Of a stretch of DNA of 63,279 nucleotides, positions 1 to 63,054 are shown piece by piece; the first letter of the stretch is position 1, and every line of letters starts with the position of its first letter. Under the pieces are notes generated by a model, which made no database searches, was not told where the DNA came from, and saw only the letters and a list, made by a program, of their open reading frames with translations. Source of the stretch: a virus; IMG/VR virus record IMGVR_UViG_3300009415_000003; one strand, 5' to 3'. A program made the position numbers and the translations under genes.

Positions 1-123
1 AACCTTAGCATGATTATAGAAAGTCTCTACTTTATGTTCATTCCAGCTATCAGAATCAATTATACAAATAGGCTGTACTGTAAGGCTTCCTGTCGTACTC
101 GTAAAGGGTAATCTGATATATGA
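1..123. repeat. Direct terminal repeat / circular-assembly overlap, copy 1
   Basis: Bases 1-123 are identical base for base to 63157-63279; implies a circular or terminally redundant unit of 63156 bp. Confidence 0.97.
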
Positions 124-354
124 TATAGCAGTAACAACTTGATTAGAATTGATATTGTAACTATCATTTAACATCCCGTTTCGCCAATCTGCTTTTGCGA
201 AGACTAAAGAATTAGAGACGTCTTGTCCATTCAATTCGATATAATTAGAATTGATATTGCTTTCTAAGTAATTTGATTTGATTGTGTCAGCTTCAACAAT
301 GGATTGAGCTGATAGAGAAAACGTGAATAATAGATAGATAATTAATAATTTCAT
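1..354 (-). CDS. Exported small protein, N-terminal 118 codons (gene crosses the window junction; C-terminal part is 63094..63156)
   Basis: The ATG at 352-354 overlaps the TGA of the upstream ORF (ATGA). It translates MKLLIIYLLFTFSLSA/QSIVEAD, a signal peptide with Gln at +1. The frame stays open to base 1 and continues through the repeat to TAA at 63094-63096, 138 aa in total. Confidence 0.7.
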   Translation of the reverse strand, partial: MKLLIIYLLFTFSLSAQSIVEADTIKSNYLESNINSNYIELNGQDVSNSLVFAKADWRNGMLNDSYNINSNQVVTAISYIRLPFTSTTGSLTVQPICIIDSDSWNEHKVETFYNHAKV

Positions 355-3300
355 CTGATTAATATTTTATAAGAATTAGATAATTGAGTACACTCGTTGA
401 CTTGTATATTGACCTGTTCGCCTTGATCCAGTTCTATTTCATAAATAAAAGGTTCATTATTATCTATTCCTGATTGAGTTCTTATGCATCCCGAATCGTA
501 TTCATTTATAATGAATTGATCCTTCCTGTAGTAGCTTGAAAGTTCAAATATATAATTTTTTGATTCTTGTGCTATGAAAGTTTCATTGAAACTTGACGTG
601 CCTTTTATTTCGGAGGGTAGATAATTAGTAGACATCAGATAATTTGCGTCATTTATGAGCGAAGACGGACAATTACAAAATTGATTAAAAAACTGAGATC
701 CTCTAATGACATCAAAAGTATTACTTGTGCAATTTGACGTTACAAATCCAGAAAACCTTATAGTTGATATATCGCATGGATCAGTATTGCCAATATTAAT
801 TGTTTCAAAAATATCCTCAGTATCTCCGCAATTTGTAGTGAATGTATATTGTTGTGAAAAAACAAGGCTGCCATTTGCGATTACTTCAAAAGTTCCATCA
901 AACTCAATAGGTCCACAACAATCATCAGAACAATTATAATTATATCCCCAAGACCAACCATATCCAGCTGCAAAACAATTAGCAGATAATGGGAATGGAG
1001 AATATGAATCAGTTCCAGTGCAACCTTCACACCCTGAAACATTAGCATTCCAGTTCTTTTCGGGGCAATTAGAATTACCTGATACATCTCTTGAATTTAA
1101 AGTATAGGTTCCGTCAGCACTTACACTTGTGCATCCAGAATTGCCTGAGATAAGAGTCGCACTGCCGTCTGGATTTAGTATCCTTCTGCTTTCAAAGTTA
1201 TCACAATCCGCACCCTGATAACTCCAACAAAGTTCGCACTCGTCGGGATCAAATAGTAAAGTAGCATTACAGTTACAAGTTGGTGCACAATTAAATTCAT
1301 TGCAGGTGGTCATTAAATTGCTGCATCCATTAGTGCCAATGAATATGACTTGATAAAACCCATTTTCAGTTACATTGTAAGTTGAATTGCCGTTTCCACT
1401 GCCTACATTTGTATTTCCACCTCCAGTACATCCTGAACTATTCCATTTCAAAACAACCCATGTACGATCTGGGCAACTATCCGATATATTAATGCGACAA
1501 TTTGAAGGGTCAAAAGAGGCTGTAGTTTGACTATCTGAACAGCTACAATTATTAACATTGCAATTCACTGTAGTTTGTGCATTCAAGGCGTTACATCCTT
1601 CACATCCTCTTACAGAAACTATCCAGTTGCCCGAAGCAGTGGCAGTAAAAGTATTGCTACTTCCATTTGGAAATTGTTGGCCAGAAGGTGAAACAAAAGT
1701 ATATGTCGCATTTGGGCAATTCGTAGCACTTGCAGTTAAAATACACCCATTACTTGTTAGCGTTACTGTGCTATTACAATTACATTGCGTTACAACATCA
1801 AAGCAATGCTCCGTTCTACATTGACTGCATCCAGTAGGGGTACAAGATACTACATAGCAATATCGACCTGGGCCATCGATGTCTACAATAGTATTAAGAT
1901 CTGTTAGGTTTCCGTTTTTCTCCCATAGATCACTTGCAGAACTACAATCTCCGTAATTCCCAAATGGTGTCGGATCAAAATCATAATTCCCCGTCCCTGA
2001 GCACCACGTCTGATCAGGAAAATTAAAGCTCGGGCAATTACAGCTCGGATCAACACAATTATTAGTGATTGTCCAAGTGTCTGAAAATGTTTCTCCCGCG
2101 CAATCCCCTGAATTACAAGTTAAATTTATTGTGAATACTCCATACTCTTCACATGTGGATTGACCAACGAAAAAACTACCATTACTCGAGATATTAATAT
2201 TACATCCAGACGGAGCTGTCACAGAACCCGACCAGTTCGAACAATTATTAATAAACCAATCCGAACCTAATTGATATGAGTTAAAACCCTCGGTTGTCCA
2301 ACATACTGACTCGTCGCTTGGCGCGGTGACTGTCGGTGCAGGATCACAAACTGGGTCCTGCGTACAAGTTGTTAGCTTAGCAAATCCAAAGTTTCTAACT
2401 GTACAGGGGTCCGTGGCTCCCGACAACTGTATACCATACCAACCGTCGCCGTTGGGGCACCCTGATAAAGAAACAGTAATGTCAACGCCTGGAGTAATAT
2501 TTTGTAAATTACAAAAAGACTCTGGAAAAGTAGTTGATCCCGCAGGACTTGCACCATTTCCATAATACGCGAGATTAACGTTACTATAAAGTGAGCCACA
2601 ATCCGAACCAACAAAATCTATAATCATCTCACAATCATTAACTCCTGTATCAATATTCACCTCACAATCACATACAGGCTCCAATGGAGGAACGCAATTT
2701 GCTTGTATTGATGGAGTGGTGATATCACAACAAGCGTCTCCGTTCTGTGTAATCTTTCTAGAAGTCCATAGAGAGTTATGGCAACCCGTGTCATTGGTCA
2801 TGTCATATGTCGTTATTCCTGAATTGACTGTAAAATTTGGAGACCCTGCTTGAGCTGGACTACATTCCATAACAAGACCCTCACCACCTGCAAAGTACTC
2901 TTGACACGCAGCTGAGCTTGCATCTACTCTAATGATACAATTATCAATAGTTACAATAGGTTCGCACAAACAGCAATTTGCAGGATCGTCTAATACAATG
3001 TTCCAGCTGCCAGACTTTTTACATCCGTCTGGAGTTTCAAGGTTAAACCCAATGCTTTGTCCTCCCTGACAACCATTATATTCAGGATTTATCGTTAAGC
3101 TGCTTTCTAAATTTGGGAGCCATTGTATCGTAGTTCCTGCCGGTTGCAAGTTTTGTATACCTACAATGATATCATCATCATTGTAGCAAACAGCATTAGC
3201 ATAACTACAATCGGGATCGACTTGAAACGTTGCGCCTCCATCAAGCGATATCACGCATTCAAATGTAGCCACTTCAAATACCGTCACATTGAATTGAGCT

Positions 3301-3554
3301 ATTGAGTTACATTCGGGCTTATCGCAGTCGCCAGAAAATCCGTAATATGTGCCACTCTCTGTGGTTATGAAACTTCCTGATCCAGTAGCTGTTAGTTCTG
3401 GTGTTCCGCTTAAATTCTTAGACCATTTAGCATCTCTTCCCCCGCCTGTTAGAAAAGCAGCATAGCAAAACTCACACTCTATGACAGCATCAACTGTTTG
3501 AGCATTGCCTGAAAAAAATGGCAAAATAAATAATACGATAAGTAACTTTTTCAT
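351..3554 (-). CDS. Exported giant cysteine-rich repeat protein (adhesin-like)
   Basis: 1067-aa ORF. The N-terminus MKKLLIVLFILPFFSGNA/QT is a signal peptide. I counted about 79 Cys by hand, in recurring GC/NC/CxC/CxxC modules. The C-terminal ~90 aa look like a beta-sandwich module. No catalytic motif recognised. Confidence 0.85.
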   Translation of the reverse strand: MKKLLIVLFILPFFSGNAQTVDAVIECEFCYAAFLTGGGRDAKWSKNLSGTPELTATGSGSFITTESGTYYGFSGDCDKPECNSIAQFNVTVFEVATFECVISLDGGATFQVDPDCSYANAVCYNDDDIIVGIQNLQPAGTTIQWLPNLESSLTINPEYNGCQGGQSIGFNLETPDGCKKSGSWNIVLDDPANCCLCEPIVTIDNCIIRVDASSAACQEYFAGGEGLVMECSPAQAGSPNFTVNSGITTYDMTNDTGCHNSLWTSRKITQNGDACCDITTPSIQANCVPPLEPVCDCEVNIDTGVNDCEMIIDFVGSDCGSLYSNVNLAYYGNGASPAGSTTFPESFCNLQNITPGVDITVSLSGCPNGDGWYGIQLSGATDPCTVRNFGFAKLTTCTQDPVCDPAPTVTAPSDESVCWTTEGFNSYQLGSDWFINNCSNWSGSVTAPSGCNINISSNGSFFVGQSTCEEYGVFTINLTCNSGDCAGETFSDTWTITNNCVDPSCNCPSFNFPDQTWCSGTGNYDFDPTPFGNYGDCSSASDLWEKNGNLTDLNTIVDIDGPGRYCYVVSCTPTGCSQCRTEHCFDVVTQCNCNSTVTLTSNGCILTASATNCPNATYTFVSPSGQQFPNGSSNTFTATASGNWIVSVRGCEGCNALNAQTTVNCNVNNCSCSDSQTTASFDPSNCRINISDSCPDRTWVVLKWNSSGCTGGGNTNVGSGNGNSTYNVTENGFYQVIFIGTNGCSNLMTTCNEFNCAPTCNCNATLLFDPDECELCWSYQGADCDNFESRRILNPDGSATLISGNSGCTSVSADGTYTLNSRDVSGNSNCPEKNWNANVSGCEGCTGTDSYSPFPLSANCFAAGYGWSWGYNYNCSDDCCGPIEFDGTFEVIANGSLVFSQQYTFTTNCGDTEDIFETINIGNTDPCDISTIRFSGFVTSNCTSNTFDVIRGSQFFNQFCNCPSSLINDANYLMSTNYLPSEIKGTSSFNETFIAQESKNYIFELSSYYRKDQFIINEYDSGCIRTQSGIDNNEPFIYEIELDQGEQVNIQVNECTQLSNSYKILIR

Positions 3555-3922
3555 TCAGCTGGTTCTGGTTCTTCAAAGCAAGCCCAATTAGGCGTAGCTT
3601 TTTTGCAAATGTCAAACTCATAACTAACCCTACTACTGCACCCTAAGCTCTCACAAACACAACTGACAAATACTGTATGACTCCCAACAGATAAAGTACC
3701 TGCATGAATAGTTACAGTTCCATCTATCTGTGATACTGTGCCCTCTGATGTACCATAGCTATAATTATTCGTGCTGTAATTATCAGTGCATGTGCTTGGA
3801 CCTAAAGTAATATCTTGACTCTCACAAAAGGGGCCACAAGGAATAAAGGCAATGTCAACTACCTCCACACTTGGACATGATAGCCAAAGGAAAATCAATA
3901 ATATGATGCTATTCCTAATCAT
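3551..3922 (-). CDS. Exported Cys-rich protein, paralogue of the N-terminal half of 4810..5466
   Basis: 123 aa with N-terminus MIRNSIILLIFLWLSC (signal peptide/lipobox). It shares the pattern C.DNY..Y...G.V..G.....F.V.C.C...C with the 218-aa neighbour. The start overlaps the upstream stop. Confidence 0.75.
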   Translation of the reverse strand: MIRNSIILLIFLWLSCPSVEVVDIAFIPCGPFCESQDITLGPSTCTDNYSTNNYSYGTSEGTVSQIDGTVTIHAGTLSVGSHTVFVSCVCESLGCSSRVSYEFDICKKATPNWACFEEPEPAE

Positions 3923-4800
3923 AGACAGTCCTCATTTTGAAAGGTGGTTTTGACAAATAGATTTGCAGAACACATGACTGTACAGCCTTCTGCATCTGTC
4001 ACCTCTACATGATAGGCTCCGTCATCTGTCACTATTGGATCTTCTACTGTAGATGTAAAACCATTTGGACCTGACCATACATAAGTGAATGGTGCGTTGC
4101 TTCCTGTTACTGTCAAATCAAATTGCCCAGACGGTGTATTATTTCTGCATATTTTGACGTTCTCGACTGAACAAGATAAGTCACTGTCTGATATTACAAT
4201 CTTCTCCACTGCTGCACCCATACACATACAATCATCTGTGACATCTTCGCTGACGGTCACTGAGTAAGTACCTGCCATTATTACATCTATGCATTCTGTC
4301 GTTTCGCCTGTGCTCCATACAAAATCAGGATTGACATAATTATTAGTCACTGCACAGATCTCTACCGACTCATCACAGAGCAACTCGTAAGGTGCTGATA
4401 TTTCGACTATGTATTTCTCGCAGCAATCCTCACTGCCTCCACCTTCACATGGGATGTATAGGGTAGTGGTTCCTGATCCAACACATCCTGTACAGTCTGG
4501 AAAAGAACCTGAGTATGTAAATGAGTAAGGTCCGCAAACCATTGGATCAAAACAGTGGTCATGTGGCCATTGGCTACCCTGAGTATAAATTGTTTCGCCT
4601 ACTGGTGAATTGAGAATGGTGATAGTGCCGCCTGGATCTGGCCTTAATCCATTTTCGTTAGAGTCAATTAAGTCTATGAAGTTATGACACTCTAACCAAT
4701 AGGCAATATGCAATTGGTGTTTCGTATGCTGATCATATTTATCATATGCATACCAAACACCAATTGTTATTAATATTATTAAGACTATCCAACGTTTCAA
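3919..4800 (-). CDS. Membrane-anchored/exported Cys-rich protein with SprB-repeat-like Ig module
   Basis: 293 aa with an N-terminal hydrophobic anchor MKRWIVLIILITIGVWYAY. The C-terminal CRNNTPSGQFDLTVTGSNAPFTYVWSGPNGFTSTVEDPIV..GAYHVEVTDAEGC fits the SprB-repeat/Ig-like pattern of Bacteroidota gliding adhesins. Confidence 0.75.
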   Translation of the reverse strand: MKRWIVLIILITIGVWYAYDKYDQHTKHQLHIAYWLECHNFIDLIDSNENGLRPDPGGTITILNSPVGETIYTQGSQWPHDHCFDPMVCGPYSFTYSGSFPDCTGCVGSGTTTLYIPCEGGGSEDCCEKYIVEISAPYELLCDESVEICAVTNNYVNPDFVWSTGETTECIDVIMAGTYSVTVSEDVTDDCMCMGAAVEKIVISDSDLSCSVENVKICRNNTPSGQFDLTVTGSNAPFTYVWSGPNGFTSTVEDPIVTDDGAYHVEVTDAEGCTVMCSANLFVKTTFQNEDCL

Positions 4801-4809
4801 TAGTGGTTT

Positions 4810-5466
4810 TTATGGGTCGCAAATTTCTAATTGTACTGGTAATTTCACTTGTACCGTCACATCAATTGTAGACACACAACCATCTGGGAATGTCACTGTA
4901 GCCGTGAATACATCACCGTCAGTACATGGACTACAAATTTCTGTATTGTTTCCTGTAGCGACGACTGCACCTGAGATGTCAGTCCATTCAACAGTAGACC
5001 CTGCTGGCAGTCCTGGTATATTACCATTCATCTGATCAGTCTCACAGACTCTATGAGTACAATTCCCTTGATTACCATCTGCAACATAGCCGCCTTGACC
5101 TGGTGGCACTGGTATTGTCCTTAATTGACAAGATAAATCTGGTGCTGCTGATACTGGCACTGAGAAAATAGTAACGTTCTCACATGGAGCAGTAGGATCA
5201 TCACATGTACAGGTGACTGAGAAATCAAAAGTAGGAGCTGTGAAGTTAGCAGGTATATTGTATGTAGCCACACCACTTGCATCAACGGTTACACCTGTAG
5301 AAGCAATATAAGTATATCCACTACCATAATTGTCAGAACATCCTGCATCAACCATTCCAGTCGCTCCATTTGGACCTAAACAAATAGGATCACAAATGAC
5401 ATCCTGAGAGAACACTGCAATAGAAATAAGTGATAATAGTATAATTAAAATAATCTTATCTCTCAT
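4810..5466 (-). CDS. Exported Cys-rich protein (paralogue family)
   Basis: 218 aa with signal peptide MRDKIILIILLSLISIAVFS/QD. About 20 Cys. Its N-terminal half is paralogous to 3551..3922. Confidence 0.8.
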   Translation of the reverse strand: MRDKIILIILLSLISIAVFSQDVICDPICLGPNGATGMVDAGCSDNYGSGYTYIASTGVTVDASGVATYNIPANFTAPTFDFSVTCTCDDPTAPCENVTIFSVPVSAAPDLSCQLRTIPVPPGQGGYVADGNQGNCTHRVCETDQMNGNIPGLPAGSTVEWTDISGAVVATGNNTEICSPCTDGDVFTATVTFPDGCVSTIDVTVQVKLPVQLEICDP

Positions 5467-5776
5467 CCTTAAAATATTTTTTAGTCATAACATAGAGTCT
5501 CAATTCACCTTCTTTTTTTTCTCTTCTTTCTTTTTCCTCTAAAGCCATTTGGTATTGAAAAACATCATTGCCATCAAGTGAAATTTTACTTTTCTTTTCA
5601 ATGACTTTTAATTCCAATGATTCCTCATCCGCTTTTCTGATGATCACTGTTTTCTTATCAATCAGCTCTGTTAATGTCCTATAAGTAATTCCTCCAAGTG
5701 GTGGAGGTGCTACAACTACCTGCCCAAATCCCACAAAGGAAATAGCCGATAAAATAAGTGTTGTGATTATTTTCAT
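5456..5776 (-). CDS. Exported small Lys/Glu-rich protein
   Basis: 106 aa with signal peptide MKIITTLILSAISFVGFG/QV. Overlaps both neighbours, suggesting translational coupling. Confidence 0.7.
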   Translation of the reverse strand: MKIITTLILSAISFVGFGQVVVAPPPLGGITYRTLTELIDKKTVIIRKADEESLELKVIEKKSKISLDGNDVFQYQMALEEKERREKKEGELRLYVMTKKYFKDER

Positions 5777-6681
5777 TGTATTTGATTTAAGCCTAAGTCA
5801 ACTATCGCAGCAGCATTAAGGTGGACATTATCACACCAAGTATATTGCTCTGTACTATGTGCGACTCCCGAGAAGTCTATAGCGAGTTGATCAAAGGCAT
5901 TATTGATATTCGTAATTCCGTTAGCTGGATAAATGACTGACCCAGTTTTTAATTTTATAAAATTCCATTCTGGTAGCTGACCTATATGACCATTTAAGCC
6001 ATTGATCAAGTCAGTCATATTAGAATAATAATTTGCTGAATTAGTCGCTCCTGTATCTGCTTCTCCTTGAGTCCATATGACTTTTAAGACATTGACATTT
6101 CTTGTGCCTGCCCATGCGATTAAATCATCATAAGCATCTAATGTAGTCTGATATAATTCATTAGGAGTATTGACATTCCAGTCTGAGTCATTAGGGTCTT
6201 GAAATAAAGATGTACCACCGTCAGCGACTTTTAATAATACCGTGACATTACAGTTCTCTTTTGAAAACTCATTAGCATAAACAGAACCAACTGAATAATG
6301 ATCGCTGAACCCGACATATCCAGTATTGCTACCAAATTCTAATAGATCACCAAAGCCATACCCATTACCTCCTACATTCGTATTCCATACATGAGCATCT
6401 CCGTCACTTGTAACTAAACTTAAATCATCTCCACATCGTGCACCTGCATTAGATTGACCTAATTCGATAATCACATCAATGTTGCATCCACAAGGTCTGT
6501 ATTCAGTAATACCTCCATCATCAATAAATGAAAAAACATTAGTCTCTTCTAAATATACCATCTCTGACTCATTAAAAGAATCAGAGATAGATGATTTACA
6601 TGTGTCCATTTCGCTTTGCGCAAAACCAAAGACAGAAAAAATAACTGCCACTATTCCAATATATCTCTTGAGTCCTATCAT
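5773..6681 (-). CDS. Exported SASA/DUF303-type carbohydrate O-acetylesterase (SGNH-like)
   Basis: 302 aa with signal peptide ..AVIFSVFGFA/QS. The blocks LGQSNAGAR, WTQGEADT and DNVHLN match the GQSNM ... W.QGE.D ... H signature of sialate O-acetylesterase-like esterases. Confidence 0.6.
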   Translation of the reverse strand: MIGLKRYIGIVAVIFSVFGFAQSEMDTCKSSISDSFNESEMVYLEETNVFSFIDDGGITEYRPCGCNIDVIIELGQSNAGARCGDDLSLVTSDGDAHVWNTNVGGNGYGFGDLLEFGSNTGYVGFSDHYSVGSVYANEFSKENCNVTVLLKVADGGTSLFQDPNDSDWNVNTPNELYQTTLDAYDDLIAWAGTRNVNVLKVIWTQGEADTGATNSANYYSNMTDLINGLNGHIGQLPEWNFIKLKTGSVIYPANGITNINNAFDQLAIDFSGVAHSTEQYTWCDNVHLNAAAIVDLGLNQIQ

Positions 6682-9099
6682 TTATTTCTGTAATTCTTTG
6701 ATTTGTTTTTCTAAGTCGTTTATTTTTTCAGCTTGTGCCTTTATAAGCGATAAGATTAATCCATCCATATCAGCCGTTTCTATTTTTTCATGATCGTGAA
6801 TAACTCCAATGTCATGACCTACGACATTGTAAAAATCCTCTGCCATGATACCAATATGCTGATCCTGATAACCTTGATAAGCCCACTTCGTAATGTCAAC
6901 ATTCAAGAACCGATCATACATTGATTGATAATTAACTGTTGAGAAATCATGCTTGAATTTCCTTGCTGATATTGCCGCCCAAGCTGTTGCACCAGCTCCT
7001 AATGTTGCACCTGTTAATTGAGCTTGATCTGAGTACATCCATATACCATTCTGACCGACCATTTTAACCTCGTCGGTATTAGTAGAATTTAAAGGGACGT
7101 TGTTAGCTGTGTTCCATAGAAAAACTCTATCATGTAAGGCATGCGAATTAGTCCCTAATATGACTGATGAATTAGTATTATTTCCTTCATTTCCATTACC
7201 TACTGCAATGGTAGATCCTGTATTTACAAAAACACCATTTATTCCAGATAAGAATGAATTGATTGAATTTCTATGGCTCATGTTCTGACCGCCTAAATAA
7301 TTATTTTGACCGTCAAATGATCTTACTTGCTGACCTATGACTGATGATCGACTTGTTTCATCTATTTTATTTCCAGCACCAAAGACAACATTATCAAATG
7401 AATTATCTACTCTGTTTTGCTGACCACCTACCCAAGTGTTATCACTATTATCTATTGAATCTCTTGTACCTATAGCACCAGAGGCTAATGAATTTAAGGC
7501 TATGTTATCTTGACCAAACCATAGTCCATTTTGTGAAGCCTGAATATCATTTCTTCTACCTCCACCAAATGAGTGATGAGAAGCCCTCCAGTAATTCTCA
7601 CGACCTGCAAAAAATCCAGACTGAGATAGTTCATTGTTATTAGTCCTACCTCCTGTCATAGACCAGTTACCATTAGAAGTAACATCATTTGAATTGACTA
7701 TATTAATTCTATGATTTGTCGTAACTCCCGTCATTAATGCATTATCACTATCCATCCCCGACACAATCAAATCAAAGTCACCTGTGCTGCCTCCATGTAA
7801 CAATCCTGTATGTAATGTCTTATGTAATCTTAGTACACAATTTTCATTAAACTGCCTGCCATCCTCATCTAAGTAAACTTCATTCGCACATAGTTCTTCT
7901 TCTACCGTTCCGTTTGGATTAAGAAACTGTAATGACTCACTAATGCCATCAGCATTAGTAATTCGCTGTACAAAAGGTGGATCATGCAAGACAATTGTAT
8001 CAGCTTCACATGTACTTGATACATGTACAATCAAGGTATCTTGAGCGACATATAATGAGCTTGGATGTACCGCTGGAATATCTTCACATTCGCTGATTGA
8101 ACCAACTAAGTCTAAAGGAAATGTTGTGTCCGTTCCTGTCTGTGGATCAGTAGACGTAATGATTAATTGACTACTGTCTGCATTATAGGCGAAGTCAGTA
8201 ATACATGATCTACAGAATGTAACTTTGCTTCCGTCTGGAGACGTGATCGTAGTATTGCCGCCTGTATTAGTCCATGATACTGTCGTGTCTGTTATCGTAT
8301 CTCCTACATTATTTGCATCCGCATCTTGTAAATTATACGTTCCATCTCCATTGTCAACCATTGTATAACAGTCAGCACATTCGCTCCCACCTTCTGGATA
8401 AGGCACTGTTGAAACTGTATTGCCGTCTACATCAATTAAGATTAAATTACCATCTGCATCTGTGCCTAAAGTGTAGCTTGGACAAGTCTCACAGAAAGTA
8501 ACTACTGTGCCTTCATCAGTTGTAAATGTTCCCGTACCTGTACCATCTATGTCTACGCTTAATATTCCATCATCACCATCTTCGCCTGGAGTTCCTGGTG
8601 CTCCAGTTTCTCCTGGTGGACCTGTTTCTCCGTCAGGTCCTGGTTCGCCTTGTGGGCCAGCCTCTCCTGGTGCTCCATCAGCACCGTCAGCTCCAGCAGG
8701 ACCTGGTTCATTAGGTGGACATTCTGCACAATCCCCTACGATATCACCACCGCCTCCACCTGACTTGAGACATTCGATTAAATCAGCATCACTCGTAAAG
8801 TTTACGATTCGACTTTTTGAATATCTTGTACCATCTATATTAACCATAGTTGATGTAAATGAAACATCATTATAGCCTACAGAAAAATTACGTTGTGCGC
8901 CTGTCACCACGTCAGAGACTTGTAATCCTTGAAATGGTGTCGCTGTATAATTCCCTGACTTAGTAAATTCTGTCTGCAATTCACAGACACATTCAATAGA
9001 TATTGGATTTAATTTCTGAGCACTTACATTAAGCGCAAAGAGTAATGAAAAAAGTAATGCTATATGTTTCATGTTTAAATTATTTGTGATCCAGTTCAT
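6682..9099 (-). CDS. Exported collagen-like / beta-helical fibre protein with C-terminal S74 intramolecular-chaperone (self-cleaving) domain
   Basis: 805 aa. There is a signal peptide MKHIALLFSLLFALNVSA/QK (an alternative ATG lies at 9072). It has 15 G-X-Y triplets and Asn/Gly/Ser-rich repeats resembling YadA-head/tailspike beta-helix. The C-terminal ISARKFKHDF...HIGIMAEDFYNVV...LILSLIKAQAEKINDLEKQIKEL fits the Peptidase_S74 chaperone-of-endosialidase pattern (S-x-R-x-K cleavage motif). Confidence 0.8.
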   Translation of the reverse strand: MNWITNNLNMKHIALLFSLLFALNVSAQKLNPISIECVCELQTEFTKSGNYTATPFQGLQVSDVVTGAQRNFSVGYNDVSFTSTMVNIDGTRYSKSRIVNFTSDADLIECLKSGGGGGDIVGDCAECPPNEPGPAGADGADGAPGEAGPQGEPGPDGETGPPGETGAPGTPGEDGDDGILSVDIDGTGTGTFTTDEGTVVTFCETCPSYTLGTDADGNLILIDVDGNTVSTVPYPEGGSECADCYTMVDNGDGTYNLQDADANNVGDTITDTTVSWTNTGGNTTITSPDGSKVTFCRSCITDFAYNADSSQLIITSTDPQTGTDTTFPLDLVGSISECEDIPAVHPSSLYVAQDTLIVHVSSTCEADTIVLHDPPFVQRITNADGISESLQFLNPNGTVEEELCANEVYLDEDGRQFNENCVLRLHKTLHTGLLHGGSTGDFDLIVSGMDSDNALMTGVTTNHRINIVNSNDVTSNGNWSMTGGRTNNNELSQSGFFAGRENYWRASHHSFGGGRRNDIQASQNGLWFGQDNIALNSLASGAIGTRDSIDNSDNTWVGGQQNRVDNSFDNVVFGAGNKIDETSRSSVIGQQVRSFDGQNNYLGGQNMSHRNSINSFLSGINGVFVNTGSTIAVGNGNEGNNTNSSVILGTNSHALHDRVFLWNTANNVPLNSTNTDEVKMVGQNGIWMYSDQAQLTGATLGAGATAWAAISARKFKHDFSTVNYQSMYDRFLNVDITKWAYQGYQDQHIGIMAEDFYNVVGHDIGVIHDHEKIETADMDGLILSLIKAQAEKINDLEKQIKELQK
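8566..8703 (-). repeat. Collagen-like G-X-Y triplet repeat (coding)
   Basis: Encodes GPAGADGADGAPGEAGPQGEPGPDGETGPPGETGAPGTPGEDGDDG (residues ~133-178 of the 805-aa ORF). Confidence 0.9.
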
Positions 9100-9437
9100 T
9101 ATTCACTTTTTAATTCAGATATCTTTTTGATAATATCAGTTTGTAATGTCATAAACATCTGTTCTAAATGATCTACTCTCTTTGTCAGCTCATCGTTCTG
9201 AGTTTTCAATTGAGCGATTTCAATGTTTTTCTTTTCAATTTCTTGAGGATCTTTTCCCAGAATCGAATAAATAATCGGACTCAATGAACCGACTAAAACA
9301 CCGATGATCAACTTAATGACATCATTATTCTTTTCGGGTATCTCGAAAAAGAATAAACTAACTGTAATCATGATCACGATGACAAACATCAGGATCGCTC
9401 CATAATAATTCTTCGCCTCTTTCATAAATTCTCCCAC
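9099..9437 (-). CDS. Two-TM membrane protein with C-terminal coiled coil (holin- or spanin-like)
   Basis: 112 aa with hydrophobic helices YGAILMFVIVIMITVSLFFF and LIIGVLVGSLSPIIYSIL, followed by a heptad-like EIEKKNIEIAQLKTQNDELTKRVDHLEQ. Confidence 0.6.
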   Translation of the reverse strand: MGEFMKEAKNYYGAILMFVIVIMITVSLFFFEIPEKNNDVIKLIIGVLVGSLSPIIYSILGKDPQEIEKKNIEIAQLKTQNDELTKRVDHLEQMFMTLQTDIIKKISELKSE

Positions 9438-9438
9438 T

Positions 9439-10620
9439 CTATTTATTTAGTGCTTCAAAAATCAACTGACTTAAAAATGGTTCGTTTAACATACTATAAT
9501 TTTTAAGCCCTAATAATTTCGCCCAGACTTTATTTTCTTTTAATGTGTAATTTGAAGCTATTTGTTTTGCTGTTAGGTTTCTGATTTCTGAGAATTTGTC
9601 ATCTGCATCAGAAATCATTTTATCTATCTCCGATTGAAATTCATCTATCTGATTACCTGATTTTTCTTCTGCTAATTTTACGGCTGATTGGTATTCTTTT
9701 TCATTTATAAAAATAGTAGCACCTTCAATTGGTTCATCAACTCCATATGTCACGCCTTGGTCTTCCTCTAATATCCAATATTGAGTTTCTTGAATTTGAT
9801 TAGCGACAACTCCTGTAATCTCATCTCTTGGATTAAATGAGAAATTAGCCTCTGATCTTAATCCTGGTATGTACCTGAAATATGAATCGCTTTGTGAGCT
9901 TGTGACTTGATACCTTTCTCTTACTTGAACTTGAACTGTAGCACCTGCTGGTACATTTAACCTATATCCATGACCACTTCCAAAAGGAATTATATTTTCT
10001 TGTACTGATCTTACGATATCAGGACTCGTATCATTTCTTGTGTCCTTGTATCTATACTTATGATAAGTCTTAGTCCATACCGGTGTCCCATTTATCACTA
10101 ACCTATAGTCAGCCCATAGCCTTGCTCTATTTCTTCTGGATAATAAATAGTGATTTCCAAAATCAAGATTCACTGTCATGTCAGTTATGCAGTTAGGCGA
10201 TGTTCTTGCTACACTTACATTAGCCCAATCTCCTTCAGTTCTTGGAATATTAGCATTCTGAGTTATTGGCGTCCATGCTGACCACCAGCCTGTTCGATTT
10301 GTTCCATTTTCAAAATCCCCTGTACAACGTTCAATGTCTATGTCTGTTAGATACCCATTGTTTGCTACAAAAGCATCTACCTGAGATTCTGTTAATTGTG
10401 TATCATTCAAATCTGGATGATCTACTAATTCATTAATGCAATCTGAGAACTTATTCAAATCATCACATGATAACTCATAAGGATCTGGAAAATCTATACA
10501 CTTATTAATATCTTCGCAATCAGCTTTAGCCACTCCTGCCCAGCATTCAATAAACAAGACTTCTTGAGTATTTGCTAAAGTCGCTAAAAAAGTAATTATT
10601 GTAATTAATATATATCTCAT
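9439..10620 (-). CDS. Exported protein, unknown function
   Basis: 393 aa with signal peptide MRYILITIITFLATLANT/QE. The N-terminal region is Cys-rich and the C-terminus is helical and Lys/Glu-rich. Confidence 0.75.
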   Translation of the reverse strand: MRYILITIITFLATLANTQEVLFIECWAGVAKADCEDINKCIDFPDPYELSCDDLNKFSDCINELVDHPDLNDTQLTESQVDAFVANNGYLTDIDIERCTGDFENGTNRTGWWSAWTPITQNANIPRTEGDWANVSVARTSPNCITDMTVNLDFGNHYLLSRRNRARLWADYRLVINGTPVWTKTYHKYRYKDTRNDTSPDIVRSVQENIIPFGSGHGYRLNVPAGATVQVQVRERYQVTSSQSDSYFRYIPGLRSEANFSFNPRDEITGVVANQIQETQYWILEEDQGVTYGVDEPIEGATIFINEKEYQSAVKLAEEKSGNQIDEFQSEIDKMISDADDKFSEIRNLTAKQIASNYTLKENKVWAKLLGLKNYSMLNEPFLSQLIFEALNK

Positions 10621-12998
10621 TCTTTAGTTAATTTAGGACAACAATCATCTCTTGATGGTACAGCTATCGTATCAGATCTATTAGAAAACTTCTCTATGAT
10701 GTAGGCTTTTCCGTCAATACAAGCTTCTTTTTCATATAAGAAACCACCAGCATTAATTGCATCTGCTATCGCTTTTATATCAGCTTCGCAAAGCTTAATT
10801 AAAAAAGCATCTTGATTTTCGCATCCTAAAGATTCTGCATTTGGATTAGGTGATAGTATTGTAGGTGATTCTTGGGCCACTCCATTTATGATTAATTCAG
10901 CACCTTCTATTACTGGGCATAAAAAATGAAATAGCCCTGGACTTGTGCCGTCGGCTGCTGCTATCCACTGCTTACCACCAGCTGCCACTAAAGCATCGTT
11001 GAATTCAGATAGAGTAGTGCCCTTTATGTCTCCATATTGATAGCTTACATTAGGATTAGGTCTACCTCCTGTGAATTGTAATGCGGCATCAGCACAAGCG
11101 TCGACACATTCTACTATAGGAAGTCCGACTACCTTTACTGTCTGATCTATCTCACATACTTCTATATCACAAGTTGGAAGCCTCTTAAAGCCTGTCGTGT
11201 CTGTTACTTCACCATCAATCGTGAAGACTCCATCGCAGATCATACCAGAAAGTTGATCACCGACCTTGCAAGGGAAAGCAGAACTAATAGATAACGCTTT
11301 TCTCTTTAGTGATTCTAATTCACGCGTCAGTTGTTTTTTAACAGTCAGATTTTTAACGAGCTGCAATTTTATCTGTACTGCTGCTATCTGAACCTTGATC
11401 GGTCTAACTGGATCAAGTTGAGGCGTTGCCGTTGATGCATCACACATATAGCAAGCTTGCTCGCATATCTGATCACAACCTTGACAGGGTGCAATATCGT
11501 CGCCTGTATAGGTTTCTATGACTTGCCCAGAAGCATTGTAGTCTGTTGTATCTTGCTGAGTCCCTGTTGATTCAAAAATATCTTCACAGTTGCTTAATTC
11601 TGCTAATGTCCTTGTGAATTCTGTACAACCATCTTCACCCGTTGTACATAGATTAATAGTGATTTTATTATAATCACATTCGCAATCGATCTTCTTAAAT
11701 TCTGTAATGAATTCTAATGAGCTGCAATCTTGGTAAGTTAGATCTCCAGTGCAGGGATTTTGATAGATCCATAGATCACCTGAGTATTGATCCTTTTCAT
11801 TTCCGATTAATGCACAAATCGTATTACCTGTTTGTATTGATACACAATCATCATCATCTACTTCGATAGGTGGCTCTGAAAAATCAGTACCATCACAATT
11901 TATGACTTCACCAGCATATTCAACAAGATCGTCAGGACTCTCAGCATTCAGATAAGAGTCTTCTGTATAGGTTTCATTGCTCCGTTCTGGGCAATCTGTT
12001 ATTAATCTTACTACCCGTGGGCCAGCTGTTCCATCTTCATTTTTCTGACATAAATTAAACCTCTCAGTAGTACAAGGCGAAACTGCATCATCTTCTATGT
12101 AATATTCAAACTTGTATCCACAATCTTTAATACAATCTAATGGTATGGGCACGTCAGGGCCATTCTCTACAGGTTGCCACGTTGGTCTTTCTGTCTCTTC
12201 GTATTCGTTTGTTTCATAACCATTCTCATCAAGTATAGGCTGACAGAATTTTACTTTTTTTACGCCCTTTTCAATGACATGATAGTACCATACTGTTTTA
12301 TAGGTCTCACCCAATGGAAGAGGATACACTGTATATTGGCACCCGTCTGTAATCCTTGTCATCTTTTTAGTGCCGATTTTAAAGCAAGGATCTATACTTG
12401 TATATTTTGTAAACCTCCAAGTCGGAGCTGGCAACCTTCCAAATGCAGCATTTGTTTTATCATCTTTGAACTTGTTGCCGAAATCGGCCCATCCTTGTAA
12501 TTCTGGTGTCCACAATGTATAAGGTCCAAGCTGCTCTCCTTCTCCGTATGATCTTCCATTACATCTGAATTCATCGACTATGAATCCTTGATTAAAAAAA
12601 ACTAAATTAGGTCTATCGCCACAATCATTACTGGAAGATCCAGCACTGAAACCATTGTCAAACATTGCTTCAGATATTCTAAATATGCCACAACTTGGGT
12701 TTATAATTGTTGGCAAATTACAAGACGGTGCAACATTATCGCACGATCTTGGTATAAATTCACTGCCTACTTGATTTAAGCAATCGCATGTTGATGAATT
12801 AATAATATCAACCCAAACAGCTTGATTTGTAATCGTATCACAAGCTTCATAAAAGTTACCAGTTACTGGCTGTCCGACTCCATTTTGTAATGCTTCTACT
12901 AAAACTGAATCGTCAGAATATAAAATAGGTTCACTTACTTTTTTCGAGCAACCGAAAAATAAGCCGAAAACCACAAAAAAATAAATGAACCTATTCAT
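10617..12998 (-). CDS. Cys-rich lipoprotein, unknown function
   Basis: 793 aa. The N-terminus MNRFIYFFVVFGLFFGCSKK is a lipoprotein signal with a lipobox Cys. Dozens of Cys throughout. Confidence 0.8.
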   Translation of the reverse strand: MNRFIYFFVVFGLFFGCSKKVSEPILYSDDSVLVEALQNGVGQPVTGNFYEACDTITNQAVWVDIINSSTCDCLNQVGSEFIPRSCDNVAPSCNLPTIINPSCGIFRISEAMFDNGFSAGSSSNDCGDRPNLVFFNQGFIVDEFRCNGRSYGEGEQLGPYTLWTPELQGWADFGNKFKDDKTNAAFGRLPAPTWRFTKYTSIDPCFKIGTKKMTRITDGCQYTVYPLPLGETYKTVWYYHVIEKGVKKVKFCQPILDENGYETNEYEETERPTWQPVENGPDVPIPLDCIKDCGYKFEYYIEDDAVSPCTTERFNLCQKNEDGTAGPRVVRLITDCPERSNETYTEDSYLNAESPDDLVEYAGEVINCDGTDFSEPPIEVDDDDCVSIQTGNTICALIGNEKDQYSGDLWIYQNPCTGDLTYQDCSSLEFITEFKKIDCECDYNKITINLCTTGEDGCTEFTRTLAELSNCEDIFESTGTQQDTTDYNASGQVIETYTGDDIAPCQGCDQICEQACYMCDASTATPQLDPVRPIKVQIAAVQIKLQLVKNLTVKKQLTRELESLKRKALSISSAFPCKVGDQLSGMICDGVFTIDGEVTDTTGFKRLPTCDIEVCEIDQTVKVVGLPIVECVDACADAALQFTGGRPNPNVSYQYGDIKGTTLSEFNDALVAAGGKQWIAAADGTSPGLFHFLCPVIEGAELIINGVAQESPTILSPNPNAESLGCENQDAFLIKLCEADIKAIADAINAGGFLYEKEACIDGKAYIIEKFSNRSDTIAVPSRDDCCPKLTKE

Positions 12999-13026: not shown

Positions 13027-14103
13027 TTATTCACCTTCTCCCTCACCTTCACCTCCTGCTGGTGTTGTTGGATCATCATCACATAAAACTAAAATTGCAT
13101 TAGCGATAATTCCTGCACCTGCTGGAATAACTAAAGGAGTCGTTAAGTCATAACAAGCATCCGCAAGTCCATCACAGTCTTCATCTGCATAAGTTAATTT
13201 CTCGCAAAACTTCTGACCAGCATCAATTGATACTGGAGTCGTTCCGTATTCTGTAGGTCCATTAGATGTAAGGACTGCGCCTGCGCAATTCTGGCCTTTG
13301 TACTCTCCTATAATTTCTAATGCAACGATACCATCTGGCGCAACTCCATCAATCAATGCACCTGCAGCAATAGCTGCATCTAATACATCTTGTATGGTTC
13401 CCGTAGCTCCAGGTCCGCAAATTTCTACTGTTTTTTCAACCGATTTTTCGGCTGGTAATGAAGGGGGAAACCCCGCAAAGTTTGACATTTTTGTATAATT
13501 TTCTGTATTAATAATATTTTCCTCAATTGGTTCCACGCCCTGCTCAAATTGAACATAGGTGTTATTCTCACAGTCTAAGTATTGCACTAATTCTACAGGC
13601 TCCTGATCTTTCGGACCGTCCACTAAGTACATAGTACATGGAGTCGGGTCTATGAATCTTTCTTTTTTACATGGTGTAAATCCTGCCGCCTCTGGACTAC
13701 CCATTTGCATGACTGATCCTGTAGCATTTCCGTAGTAACCTATAACCGTTCCATCAGGCTTGGTGCATACTTGGAGTGTGCATATATTACCTTCTGTATC
13801 TTTGTACTGTAGTGGAATATTTTTATTGACTTCTACTGCGCCTGTGATTTCTACGTCCTCTACATTTACTATGACATCTGCAACTTCTGAACAATTACAA
13901 AAGTCATCAAATATCTGATCCAAGTCAGCTTCATTGACAATGCAATCACGATCTATGGTAGTTGATACTGATCCACCAACAACAATACATCCAGGTTCAA
14001 GATCAAATGAGTTATATATGTCTTTGTTTCCCGTCTCAATGTCCATGATGACAATGTTGCATCCGACAAGCTGAATGATATATTTTCTTTTTCTTGCTGC
14101 CAT
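13027..14103 (-). CDS. Cys-rich structural-module protein, no signal peptide
   Basis: 358 aa starting MAARKRKYIIQLVG. Many Cys and a C-terminal (GE)n tail GGEGEGEGE. Confidence 0.75.
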   Translation of the reverse strand: MAARKRKYIIQLVGCNIVIMDIETGNKDIYNSFDLEPGCIVVGGSVSTTIDRDCIVNEADLDQIFDDFCNCSEVADVIVNVEDVEITGAVEVNKNIPLQYKDTEGNICTLQVCTKPDGTVIGYYGNATGSVMQMGSPEAAGFTPCKKERFIDPTPCTMYLVDGPKDQEPVELVQYLDCENNTYVQFEQGVEPIEENIINTENYTKMSNFAGFPPSLPAEKSVEKTVEICGPGATGTIQDVLDAAIAAGALIDGVAPDGIVALEIIGEYKGQNCAGAVLTSNGPTEYGTTPVSIDAGQKFCEKLTYADEDCDGLADACYDLTTPLVIPAGAGIIANAILVLCDDDPTTPAGGEGEGEGE

Positions 14104-14113
14104 TGTTTTGATT

Positions 14114-14145
14114 AAAAAAAGGGTTTGAATCTATAACCCAAACCC
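14114..14145 (-). terminator. Intrinsic terminator
   Basis: On the - strand, GGGUUUG-(11 nt)-CAAACCC is followed by U7. It lies 28 nt after the stop of 14173..14988. Confidence 0.7.
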
Positions 14146-14172
14146 TTATCCATTTCAACTACCAAATGTGTT

Positions 14173-14988
14173 TTACTTAGGATCTTTCTTCACTTCATCT
14201 ACTTCCTTCACTGTTTTCGCTTTTTTCACTGTTTTCGCTTTTTTCTTCGGAGCTTTTAAAGGCTCTGGCCCTTCTTCCGTATCTTCTTCCTCTGACACGT
14301 ATTCACATTTTGTTGCACATAATATCGGTGTAGTGCCTCCGATTAAAGCGTCCTCAGTTAAAGCGCAGTCTGCTAAATCAAATGAATATGTATATGAGGT
14401 TACCTCTCCAAATACGTTTTTATTAATAAGTATATTGGTCGCATCCGGAACGACTTCTAAGATTGATGCTTCGTCAATTTCCTCTACTGATGTGTTTTGA
14501 TAAGTGCATATATCTATCGCTTTACATAGCTTGGTAAATGACAGCTCTGTACCATCTTCTAAGACAAGTGATAGGATTGATGCTTGACCTATATGGCTTA
14601 TCTCTTCGGCTGTGACTTTCAATTTGATATCGCACTCAAGAATGATCTCACAAGTGTCTGGATTCAATTGATCTTCTACTGGTACTTGATAACTCATCAA
14701 GGCGTTACAAATCGCATTGTATAGTGTATTCAATCCACCTTCAAGCTTTGTGTCAACTGGTTTATTGAATCTAACAATACCGTCCACTGGAGCTATACAA
14801 CCTTCGTAATCTTTATATTGAGAATGTTTGAATCCTATGACTGGACCTGTAATATCTGCCACTGGGAGTACATTTTTACACACTGGAATAGAGCCGCATT
14901 GATCACATTTTTTAGGCTTGATCATGTTTGTTGGGCACTGGAAAGGATTCGCAGGTATGTAACCGTATATTTTTGTATTTGTAGCCAT
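14173..14988 (-). CDS. Structural-module protein with Lys-rich C-terminal tail
   Basis: 271 aa. The C-terminus ..PKKKAKTVKKAKTVKEVDEVKKDPK is encoded by a short tandem nucleotide repeat (about 14207-14245). Confidence 0.75.
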   Translation of the reverse strand: MATNTKIYGYIPANPFQCPTNMIKPKKCDQCGSIPVCKNVLPVADITGPVIGFKHSQYKDYEGCIAPVDGIVRFNKPVDTKLEGGLNTLYNAICNALMSYQVPVEDQLNPDTCEIILECDIKLKVTAEEISHIGQASILSLVLEDGTELSFTKLCKAIDICTYQNTSVEEIDEASILEVVPDATNILINKNVFGEVTSYTYSFDLADCALTEDALIGGTTPILCATKCEYVSEEEDTEEGPEPLKAPKKKAKTVKKAKTVKEVDEVKKDPK

Positions 14989-15444
14989 TTAATTATATTT
15001 TTTATCAACTTCTGTCCATTTCTTTTTTGGACATTCTGTAATTACTTTTACAACTTTTTCTCCATTCTTTATTCGCTTCACTTCATCTTCTGTCAATGGA
15101 TCATCTATTAATTCAGGTATTCTAAAATGTTCTATCATCCTCGCTTTAGTCGCTAATACACAAGTGCAAATCCCACAACCGTCAACCGCTGGCAAAAATG
15201 CTTTGGGTTTTACTTTTGTTATGTAATCACATCTGTTACATATTTCCATCCTCGCATCTTTATGCTCTTTAGTGGCTAATCTGGCATCATCTTCAGTTGG
15301 ATTAGCTGCTAAATACTTAGCTAACTGATCTCCAACATAACTTTCAAATCCTTTAGGCAAACCCAATGAGTCTATGATTTTTCTTTTTAGTAATGCAATC
15401 CTGTGATCCTGCACATTTACATGAATGTAATTTTTCGCATCCAC
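14989..15444 (-). CDS. Small Cys-cluster (zinc-ribbon-like) protein
   Basis: 151 aa containing CNRCDYI...VDGCGICTCVLATKARM...ECPKKKW, a C-x2-C ... C-x2-C-x-C ... CP..KW pattern typical of a zinc-binding module. Overlaps the upstream ORF by 92 nt. Confidence 0.6.
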   Translation of the reverse strand: MDAKNYIHVNVQDHRIALLKRKIIDSLGLPKGFESYVGDQLAKYLAANPTEDDARLATKEHKDARMEICNRCDYITKVKPKAFLPAVDGCGICTCVLATKARMIEHFRIPELIDDPLTEDEVKRIKNGEKVVKVITECPKKKWTEVDKKYN

Positions 15445-23026: not shown

Positions 23027-23050
23027 CTATCATAGATTTGTATTTTTATT

Positions 23051-61395: not shown

Positions 61396-61416
61396 TATAT
61401 TGAGTCTCTAAATTAG

Positions 61417-63032: not shown

Positions 63033-63054
63033 GATATTAAGATTTTTAGTTATA

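Follow-up and report, generated by a model that had tools for sequence, protein, structure and literature searches.

We analysed the IMG/VR virus record IMGVR_UViG_3300009415_000003 (63,279 nucleotides; "the window" below means this whole stretch), in which a long, uninterrupted run of minus-strand genes, predicted to be expressed late, encodes proteins that open with bacterial export signals. The run, which we call the block, extends from position 12,998 down to 1 and continues across the junction of the circular map from 63,279 down to 58,168 (Table 1). It comprises 18 genes and 17,987 bp, or 28.5% of the 63,156 unique bp of the genome, and its genes overlap or sit no more than 28 nt apart throughout; an earlier sequence-only reading of the window, which had described about 18 kb of tightly coupled genes filling about 28% of the genome and interpreted them as a phage-encoded secretome, was accurate in both figures. 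The ends of the window carry an exact 123-bp direct repeat (positions 1-123 are identical to 63,157-63,279), and we therefore treat it as a circularly closed assembly; because the source record is a MEGAHIT k141 contig, the repeat most likely reflects overlap in the assembly of a genome that is circular or terminally redundant, and is probably no biological direct terminal repeat.

We scored N-termini with a crude rule, under which a gene is positive if the best 9-residue Kyte-Doolittle window starting in the first 15 residues scores at least 2.5 and holds no charged residue. Sixteen of the 18 block genes are positive by this rule, compared with 1 of 68 genes elsewhere (Fisher p = 2.6e-14), the sole positive outside the block being a doubtful 101-amino-acid (aa) open reading frame (ORF); within the block, all ten genes between 12,998 and 351 score, as do six of the eight from the junction-spanning ORF down to 58,168. 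The two negatives are 62775-63068, which has internal transmembrane (TM) segments only and had been recognised earlier as the one exception, and 58168-58908, which has a C-terminal TM anchor only. Read directly, the signal proteins show the n-h-c layout, in which a positive n-region is combined with a hydrophobic core free of charge and with small residues at -1 and -3. Nine of them have a predicted signal peptidase I site with Gln at +1 (the Q-rule; overall Gln frequency is 4%), and five carry a lipobox; all of these sites, and the ORFs quoted with them, are present in the sequence (Table 1). Another protein (3919-4800) has an uncleaved-looking signal anchor. The predicted export signals are of the canonical Bacteroidota type and are specific to the block. 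One start codon is ambiguous: in 60487-61395, a GTG at 61,395 gives a perfect lipoprotein signal (MNRFIAYISILFLLAC), and the ENA gene caller used a TTG at 61,356, 13 codons downstream, which removes the lipobox.

Could these N-terminal segments have nothing to do with export, serving instead as membrane tethers for assembly or as propeptides cut by the prohead protease, on proteins that stay cytoplasmic? Export in this phage is predicted from its sequence, and protease-removed "signal peptides" have been suggested on the capsid proteins of Porphyromonas gingivalis phages (Matrishin et al., 2023; PMC10367356). We nevertheless hold this explanation to be distinctly improbable, because the complete n-h-c layout with small -1 and -3 residues and Gln at +1 recurs in nine proteins and a canonical lipobox in five more, because the Q-rule and the lipobox are specific to signal peptidases I and II, because the haem c protein and the Cys-rich folds of the block fit the periplasm, and because no such segments occur in the phage's own bona fide head and tail genes.

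Table 1. Genes and other features of the window, with the block genes first, in the order 12,998 to 1 and then 63,279 to 58,168.
Feature	Position	Strand	Basis and remarks
793-aa lipobox protein, 5.5% Cys	10617-12998	-	Lipobox LFFGC (MNRFIYFFVVFGLFFGC/S); first signal-bearing block gene; conserved domains aa 92-381 and aa 383-633
393-aa Q-rule protein	9439-10620	-	TLANT/Q; conserved beta-rich core aa ~95-270; helical C-terminal region
112-aa membrane protein, two TM segments and coiled coil	9099-9437	-	phrog_9990; candidate holin or spanin-like lysis component
805-aa Q-rule protein	6682-9099	-	LNVSA/Q; Cys-containing N-domain, collagen aa 133-180, Asn/Gly-rich region, weak Peptidase_S74-like C-terminus
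302-aa Q-rule SASA-family carbohydrate esterase	5773-6681	-	VFGFA/Q; Pfam SASA; GQSN at aa 75
106-aa protein, N-terminal signal/anchor	5456-5776	-	FVGFG/Q; Pro-rich linker, charged helical C-terminus
218-aa Q-rule protein, 6.0% Cys	4810-5466	-	IAVFS/Q; weak Rib/Ig-like C-terminal domain
293-aa signal-anchor protein, 6.1% Cys	3919-4800	-	Sub-threshold SprB-repeat or Ig-like match
123-aa lipobox protein, 7.3% Cys	3551-3922	-	Lipobox LWLSC/P
1067-aa Q-rule protein, 79 Cys (7.4%)	351-3554	-	FFSGNA/Q; signal reading, Cys count
138-aa junction ORF, 5' part	1-354	-	FSLSA/Q (MKLLIIYLLFTFSLSA/Q); 4-nt overlap with stop of 351-3554; ENA gene caller agrees on 138 aa
138-aa junction ORF, 3' part	63094-63279	-	Spans window junction
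85-97-aa holin-like protein, two internal TM segments, no signal peptide	62775-63068	-	TM segments
109-aa Q-rule protein	62456-62785	-	LSLHS/Q
348-aa lipobox protein, di-haem cytochrome c peroxidase/MauG family	61417-62463	-	Lipobox FSSC; Pfam CCP_MauG; two CxxCH
302-aa astacin-like metzincin	60487-61395	-	HELLHMLGFFH; Pfam Astacin; lipobox FLLAC if GTG start
353-aa lipobox astacin-like metzincin	59429-60490	-	Lipobox FLVSC; HEFGHMLGLFH; Pfam Astacin; C-terminal coiled coil
180-aa Q-rule protein, C-terminal TM segment	58890-59432	-	SSAFS/Q; signal and TM reading
246-aa matrixin-type metzincin	58168-58908	-	HEWGHALGFSH; Peptidase_M10; C-terminal TM anchor; last block gene
358-aa Cys-rich signal-less protein	13027-14103	-	Last signal-less gene ahead of block; position conserved in relatives
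Terminator-like hairpin, 13-bp stem and T-run	14119-14147	-	10 nt upstream of 13027-14103 start; consensus match only
DUF4031 and DUF5675 genes	57458-58140	-	phrog_4887, phrog_1501; follow block
Prohead protease	19612-20694	-	PHROGs/Pfam
Tape measure protein	28511-31507	-	PHROGs/Pfam
T4 Rnl1-like RNA ligase (T4 RNA ligase 1/gp63 homologue)	35731-36768	-	phrog_562, E = 1e-69
Large terminase (TerL)	39774-41279	-	PHROGs/Pfam
Small terminase (TerS)	41272-41730	-	PHROGs/Pfam
NinG	42748-43419	-	PHROGs/Pfam
Replication initiator	44285-45208	-	PHROGs/Pfam
Helicase	45428-47932	-	PHROGs/Pfam
RecT	49708-50676	-	PHROGs/Pfam

Functional annotation supports a set of enzymes in the block. The carbohydrate esterase, metzincins, collagen-like segment and di-haem peroxidase that had been proposed from the sequence all score above the Pfam gathering thresholds and carry the corresponding motifs: the SASA match of the esterase reaches 47.7 bits (E = 2e-12; cut-off 24.8), Peptidase_M10 in the matrixin-type protein reaches 50.1 bits (E = 3.6e-13; cut-off 24; with PDB collagenase matches), and the two astacin-like proteins score 26.1 bits (60487-61395) and 32.4 bits (59429-60490) against a cut-off of 22.5. 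The second of these also matches an NCBIfam AbsR1-like domain at E = 8e-29, yet far below the cut-off of that model. The zinc-binding motif HExxHxxGxxH is found in all three metzincins, and the catalytic motifs of these and of the esterase look intact. In 61417-62463 the CCP_MauG match scores 31.1 bits (E = 4e-7; cut-off 25.6), with haem motifs CEDCH at aa 92 and CNSCH at aa 252; a phmmer search of PDB gives a weak match to cytochrome c551 peroxidase (E = 0.009), and peroxidase and MauG-like activity are indistinguishable on this evidence. Covalent attachment of haem c takes place outside the cytoplasm, so this di-haem protein would be functional only if exported.

The fibre-like features of the block are more uneven. 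The collagen segment of 6682-9099 consists of 16 Gly-X-Y triplets and scores 38 bits (Pfam Collagen cut-off 27.2); at the other end of the same protein, Peptidase_S74 is a weak match (17.3 bits against a cut-off of 22, E = 0.006), as is phrog_1786 (aa 564-802). A tblastn search with the non-collagen part (aa 191-805) against 50,697 phage records gave nothing at E <= 1e-3, and tblastn searches with 10617-12998 and with 351-3554 gave no match among isolate phages. As to the adhesin-like repeats that had been suggested for the block, the SprB, Rib, and Ig matches in 3919-4800 and 4810-5466 are all sub-threshold, and in 351-3554 we detected no internal repeat and no Pfam, PHROG, or NCBIfam match. 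For 9439-10620, the AlphaFold2 (AF2) model is weak (pLDDT 61), and its faint matches to jelly-roll TNF-like lectin and C1q structures (E = 7e-3 to 0.1) give only a hint of a TNF/C1q-like jelly roll. This protein contains once, at aa ~70-90, the motif TQLTExQVDAFVANNGYLT, which other bacteria have as tandem repeats in fibre proteins with signals (P0021, P0022, and P0024; contig L101); P0024 has a Peptidase_S74 domain and is chromosomal, adjoining a ribosome recycling factor gene (Pfam RRF) and a gene of the amino-acid/UMP-kinase family (Pfam AA_kinase). An all-versus-all blastp comparison within the genome found no paralogy, the Cys-rich exported and non-exported proteins not being detectable duplicates of one another, and a PHROGs search of 58168-63279 found nothing beyond the two flanking DUF genes, most block proteins being without a PHROG family.

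Since the domains of the block are cellular in type, and since GC content is slightly higher at 1-5 kb, one may ask whether the assembly wrongly joined a phage contig to a piece of bacterial DNA with genes for ordinary secreted proteins, a concern that the sequence-only reading had itself raised. Against such an artefact, the 123-bp terminal repeat closes the contig into a circle; in the ENA source contig (63,297 bp), which is cut open at another point, the window junction and both block boundaries are internal; the Logan assembly of a different run (SRR5821659) extends from 17,357 to about 5,400 with identical proteins and so spans the 13-kb boundary; two further contigs share the 58-kb neighbourhood; and part of 10617-12998 is matched at 98% identity by a JGI contig. 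In addition, seven relatives have head genes on one side of their signal-bearing genes and lysis or replication genes on the other. GC content at third codon positions (GC3) is uniform (0.275-0.28 in the block, 0.295-0.307 elsewhere), so the slightly higher GC at 1-5 kb reflects amino-acid composition and not foreign origin. A chimera or a host flank is excluded as far as this evidence reaches, and we regard a mis-joined assembly as extremely improbable.

The same layout was recovered when related genomes were searched, as had been proposed: a switch from signal-less to signal-bearing genes follows the head module in seven related contigs (L083, L093, L094, L095, L096, L097, and L103). L095 and L103 (36.5% GC) contain orthologues of 9439-10620 (62-71% identity), of 351-3554 (50-55% identity, with a 3551-3922-like module fused at the N-terminus), and of the junction ORF (75% identical, with a signal), as well as 105-aa genes similar to 5456-5776; the N-terminal third of 6682-9099 (the N-domain and collagen) is also found there, signal-bearing and 43% identical, and the C-terminal parts differ. 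In these orthologues the Q-rule signals have diverged in sequence and have kept the n-h-c/Gln layout. For 351-3554, the only homologue among 5.8 billion proteins is the one on the sister contig L095, which has its own signal. All six homologues of 9439-10620 that we read (P0011, P0012, and P0014-P0017) have a Q-rule signal, and in L097 (positions 10001-11279) the homologue is split in two genes, each half with a Q-rule signal of its own.

L096, a 20-kb contig in an NCBI metagenome-assembled genome (MAG; 37% GC), is syntenic with 17,357-9,100 of the window. It has signal-less Cys-rich genes first, including one for a 362-aa protein in the position of 13027-14103. Next in order are a 770-aa protein with a signal, a lipoprotein of the SASA family, a homologue of 10617-12998 with a lipobox, a homologue of 9439-10620, a TM coiled-coil protein, a protein with two TM segments, an endolysin of the Peptidase_M15_3 family, and a 34%-identical homologue of the di-haem lipoprotein. 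The remaining four contigs (L083, L093, L094, and L097; 35-39% GC) have three to five consecutive Q-rule proteins, and in L094 and L097 signal-less genes analogous to 13027-14103 lie directly upstream of the first signal-bearing gene. For a baseline, we compared two Flavobacterium phages (11b and FCL-2), each of which has only four signal- or TM-like genes, which look like holins, spanin-like lipoproteins, and one Q-rule protein; by this measure the block is of unusual scale. Among the relatives of the window, signals are thus kept at 34-75% protein identity; their retention through such extensive divergence suggests that selection maintains export, and that export must matter for the fitness of the phage. 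The module is conserved by lineage, in a clade of low-GC siphovirus-like phages whose hosts are most likely Bacteroidota.

Some block members are probably lysis membrane proteins of the holin or spanin type. The topologies of 9099-9437 and 62775-63068 fit a holin or spanin, although no endolysin was recognised in the window. The TM coiled-coil gene that comes ahead of the holin-like and M15 endolysin genes in L096 is analogous to 9099-9437, and the position of 62775-63068 matches that of a 107-aa two-TM gene in the same contig. In that contig the Peptidase_M15_3 endolysin (12049-12462) lies between this holin-like gene and the di-haem homologue, a slot that is occupied in the window by 62456-62785; candidates for an endolysin in the window are the DUF5675 protein (57458-57895) and the tail-anchored matrixin (58168-58908). 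The block resembles holin/endolysin/spanin cassettes in these small membrane proteins, in its small lipoproteins or signal-anchored coiled-coil proteins (3551-3922 and 5456-5776), and in the two-TM gene and endolysin that L096 has inside its block, but at most four or five of the 18 block genes could be explained in this way.

We put it at somewhat better than even odds (about 0.55) that the block is a conserved, exported late module that acts at the envelope of the infected cell, with lysis membrane proteins embedded in it. Its products would be made late, from the same tightly packed transcription unit as the head genes, and would be translocated by the host Sec machinery; signal peptidase I would cleave some of them, exposing a Gln that is probably cyclised to pyroglutamate as in host proteins, and signal peptidase II would cleave and lipidate others. 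Folding would take place in the periplasm or outer membrane, where disulfides can form and haem c can attach. The envelope-active enzymes would then be the three metzincins, the SASA-type sugar O-acetyl esterase, and the di-haem peroxidase or MauG-like lipoprotein; the large Cys-rich proteins would serve in binding, as fibre- or lectin-like molecules whose proximal domains are conserved and whose distal domains can be swapped; and the small membrane proteins would probably include holin and spanin functions. Together, up to and during lysis, such products may alter or cover the surfaces of the infected cell and its debris, with receptor destruction or masking, adhesion, and matrix formation as possible roles, and they would not be built into the particles assembled in the cytoplasm. 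Five or six of them are predicted lipoproteins, which a lipid anchor would hold in the membrane and thereby keep off the virion; the lipid anchors and the haem protein suggest that at least these members stay in the envelope.

An exported module could also be cargo for lysogenic conversion, that is, a set of morons expressed from a prophage, whose adhesins, proteases, and peroxidase would alter the lysogen's surface. The enzymes are cellular in type and without a PHROG family, exported S74 fibre proteins encoded on bacterial chromosomes share a motif with 9439-10620, and the relative L096 is binned into a MAG, all of which would fit. However, Pfam and PHROGs found no integrase, excisionase, or repressor among the ORFs tested, the block has the same GC3 as the rest of the phage, the assembly is circular, and gene content is conserved among relatives, not variable. 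The block genes overlap or abut the head genes, which leaves no room for promoters of their own, and promoter-like sites are no commoner than in shuffled sequence. Tight coupling to head genes and the lack of a recognised lysogeny module both argue against conversion cargo, which we consider improbable.

Several observations weigh against an exported module acting at the envelope, and some of them concern the first signal-bearing gene, 10617-12998. This protein has eight homologues in a database of 5.8 billion proteins, and a profile search with its domain 1 retrieved 88 representatives; we call the proteins that share this domain the J family and inspected 66 of the 88 for signals. Only 12 of the 66 have a Q-rule signal or lipobox (11 of the 12 with an amino-acid composition of the low-GC type; all members of the signal peptidase I type have Gln at +1, and P0006, P0033, and P0054 have lipoboxes), and the other 54 have no signal. 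In phage contigs with a GC content of 43-60% (L084 and L091 among them), between one and three genes separate the signal-less homologues from the major head protein, counting the homologue itself, and other Cys-rich signal-less proteins surround them, and one such contig is binned with a MAG of the alphaproteobacterium Robiginitomaculum. Many signal-less members have the domain right at their N-terminus, with variable regions as long as ~1,900 aa behind it, and domains have been exchanged among members of the family. A conserved proximal part with a variable distal part is the architecture of phage fibres, which suggests that the ancestral role was probably that of a virion or lysate protein, export signals having been gained later by a subset, and points to a virion role for at least the J family. 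Structure and domain searches gave no further lead: the AF2 model of domain 1 (pLDDT 82.7, pTM 0.73) matched nothing in PDB or BFVD below E = 0.05 or above a Foldseek template-modelling score of 0.25, Pfam found no informative domain in six long members, and patterns made from the family had no match in IMG/VR.

Cys content points in the same direction. The count of about 79 Cys in the 1,067 residues of 351-3554 given by the sequence-only reading is exact, but extreme Cys density does not mark the exported block: signal-less proteins reach 4.5-5.9% Cys, both downstream of the tape measure gene (27371-28510 and 23781-27374), at 33827-34543, and in the head module (13027-14103, 14173-14988, 15353-16096, and 17779-18348 among them). 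Mean Cys content is 2.8% in the 13-34.5 kb region, compared with 1.25% in the early region and 0.9% in the Flavobacterium phages 11b and FCL-2, and signal-less homologues or homologous regions in phages of other hosts are equally Cys-rich. Cys richness is therefore not tied to export, and its presence in signal-less tail-tip proteins and exported proteins alike suggests one functional class. Further points of the same kind are that 6682-9099 combines collagen with a weak S74-like end, as phage fibres do; that the slot of the block, between structural and lysis genes, is the usual site of host-recognition genes; that the matrixin 58168-58908 is without an N-terminal signal; and that no block protein was found to resemble a known superinfection-exclusion protein. 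No type IX secretion sorting domain (Por_Secre_tail/TIGR04183, type B) was found by Pfam or NCBIfam in the full block proteins, or in their isolated C-terminal 120-aa segments at E up to 10, which leaves surface exposure or release before lysis unproven. We infer translocation, cleavage, and pyroglutamate formation from the sequence, as we do the timing of expression and every functional role. The signals and the enzymes that the sequence-only reading had described are thus real, but a pure secretome is insecure, given a J family that is mostly signal-less and fibre-like.

These points raise the possibility, the main rival to the envelope module, that fibres mature outside the cytoplasm. The proteins 10617-12998, 9439-10620, 6682-9099, and those of 351-5466 would be virion fibres or decorations that fold oxidatively in the periplasm and attach only when lysis mixes the compartments, with the enzymes and small proteins as accessories. 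The J family (mostly signal-less, conserved at the N-terminus, and encoded near the major head protein), domain swapping between relatives, the collagen and weak S74-like end of 6682-9099, the faint TNF/C1q-like core of 9439-10620, the equal Cys richness of the signal-less tail-tip proteins, and the position of the block in the usual host-specificity slot before the lysis genes are all consistent with it. We judge it unlikely all the same: several members, including 10617-12998 and its homologue in L096, are predicted lipoproteins and would stay anchored in the membrane; beyond the collagen triplets there is no homology to known tail-fibre families; a 1197-aa protein encoded downstream of the tape measure gene could alone take the part of receptor-binding protein; no virion protein is matched by the AF2 fold of J domain 1; and we know of no tailed-phage precedent for fibre maturation outside the cytoplasm. 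In a more specific form of the idea, which we think rather unlikely, a share of the host-recognition apparatus would be produced extracytoplasmically: exported Cys-rich fibres and lectin-like proteins, disulfide-bonded in the periplasm and pyroglutamate-capped, would dock onto finished capsids or tails only at lysis and so arm them after the event, the co-exported enzymes would process the fibres or the surface, and the J family would have switched from cytoplasmic to periplasmic assembly on moving to Bacteroidota.

Whether its products act at the envelope, as we prefer, or end up on virions, a block-scale exported late module has hardly been described in tailed phages. On the prevailing view, these phages assemble all their parts in the cytoplasm and few of their proteins, all of them small, are exported; the known exported phage proteins are the products of single small genes: Llp of T5, Cor of phi80 and N15, Lom and Bor of lambda, spanins, and signal-arrest-release endolysins. 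By masking the receptor, Llp prevents the loss of progeny on debris. The block is similar to Llp, Cor, Lom, and Bor in that exported phage proteins are encoded beside host-recognition genes, theirs acting on the envelope of the infected or lysogenic cell; unlike these single small genes, which include no enzyme and no large fibre, it has many genes, for which no PHROG homology was found. A second likeness is to bacterial adhesins with an S74 "tail fiber domain", of which P0024 is an example, which unite signal peptide, fibrous stalk, and variable distal binding domain, some with an S74 chaperone as well; those adhesins are cell-encoded and have cellular functions, whereas the genes described here belong to a phage late operon and their S74 match is below threshold. 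The mosaic fibre proteins of Bdellovibrio are likewise trimeric fibre adhesins of the cell surface that are related to phage fibres.

The sequence-only reading had stated that no equivalent was described. In fact, five genes that have no known function and carry Q-rule signal peptides have been noted in P. gingivalis phages, and were interpreted as an adaptation to the secretion system of the host that might change the outer membrane (Matrishin et al., 2023; PMC10367356). As in the window, these are genes of Bacteroidota phages with predicted signal peptidase I sites that expose Gln. They are, however, five scattered genes of temperate phages, whereas the block has about 17 contiguous late-operon genes, which take up 28% of the genome of a phage in which no lysogeny module was detected; compared by description, the block also differs in having enzymes and very large Cys-rich proteins, and in being conserved as a block in relatives. 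A contiguous, conserved late module of about 17 exported genes with periplasm-dependent enzymes was not found in the literature searched, where the P. gingivalis phages were the one partial precedent; the earlier statement is nearly right.

A parallel for the Cys-rich proteins comes from Agrobacterium phage Milano (PMC10811340) and cyanophage Pam3 (PMC9942802), which are reported to have disulfide-stabilised virions with Cys-rich outer structural proteins. This bears on the Cys-rich signal-less proteins at 13-34 kb of the present phage. The Cys-rich proteins of Milano and Pam3 are not known to have export signals or to be assembled anywhere but in the cytoplasm.

If the predicted export takes place, a phage lineage puts more than a quarter of its genome into exported late proteins, including a haem enzyme that would mature only in the periplasm, and either outcome would be new biology: reprogramming of the surface of the infected cell (receptor destruction or masking, adhesion, or matrix formation), or maturation of virion fibres outside the cytoplasm. 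The phage group is ecologically important and poorly studied, and several of its protein families have no known fold or function; the J family has a confident AF2 model that matches nothing and, with members both with and without signal peptides, offers a natural experiment on why a phage protein becomes exported. For the annotation of Bacteroidota viromes, a signal peptide should not be taken as grounds for dismissing genes as non-viral.

The element is a genuine tailed phage, as judged from its predicted gene content, and is far from anything cultured. Its best TerL match among isolates is 34% identical, to Bacteroides phages; IMG/VR relatives with TerL at ~50% identity share almost nothing else with the window, and megablast of the block against isolate phages found no close relative. 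Apart from a small early block (54.0-57.4 kb), all genes are on the minus strand. Pfam and PHROGs identified no portal, tail tube, or endolysin in the window. The host is likely a Bacteroidota bacterium, given that the Q-rule is obeyed, that only 3 of 86 genes have a Shine-Dalgarno core upstream, that the nearest isolate TerL is from Bacteroides phages, and that a Bacteroidetes-type promoter of the TTTG/TAnnTTTG form, a motif whose genome-wide count of 5 is not above the 2.65 expected from shuffled sequence, lies at 53977-54008 on the minus strand (TTTG, a 20-nt spacer, and TACATTTG), where it heads the leftward early operon in a divergent early region.

A few other features of the window may be mentioned. 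The terminator-like hairpin ahead of 13027-14103 is a possible attenuator between the head genes and the block. On the far side of the block, the DUF4031 and DUF5675 genes close the minus-strand operon, convergent with the plus-strand early genes; the DUF5675 protein had no match in PDB. The order of the structural modules (19612-41730) is odd, with TerS and TerL followed by the tape measure gene and two genes for large Cys-rich proteins, and then by the prohead protease and a putative capsid gene. The RNA ligase gene 35731-36768 is probably an RNA-repair gene; the label of phrog_562 is "RNA ligase and tail fiber protein attachment catalyst", which bears on the question of fibre attachment in this phage. 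Lastly, a plus-strand tRNA-Met gene (22954-23027) runs antisense to the late genes around it, which are on the minus strand.

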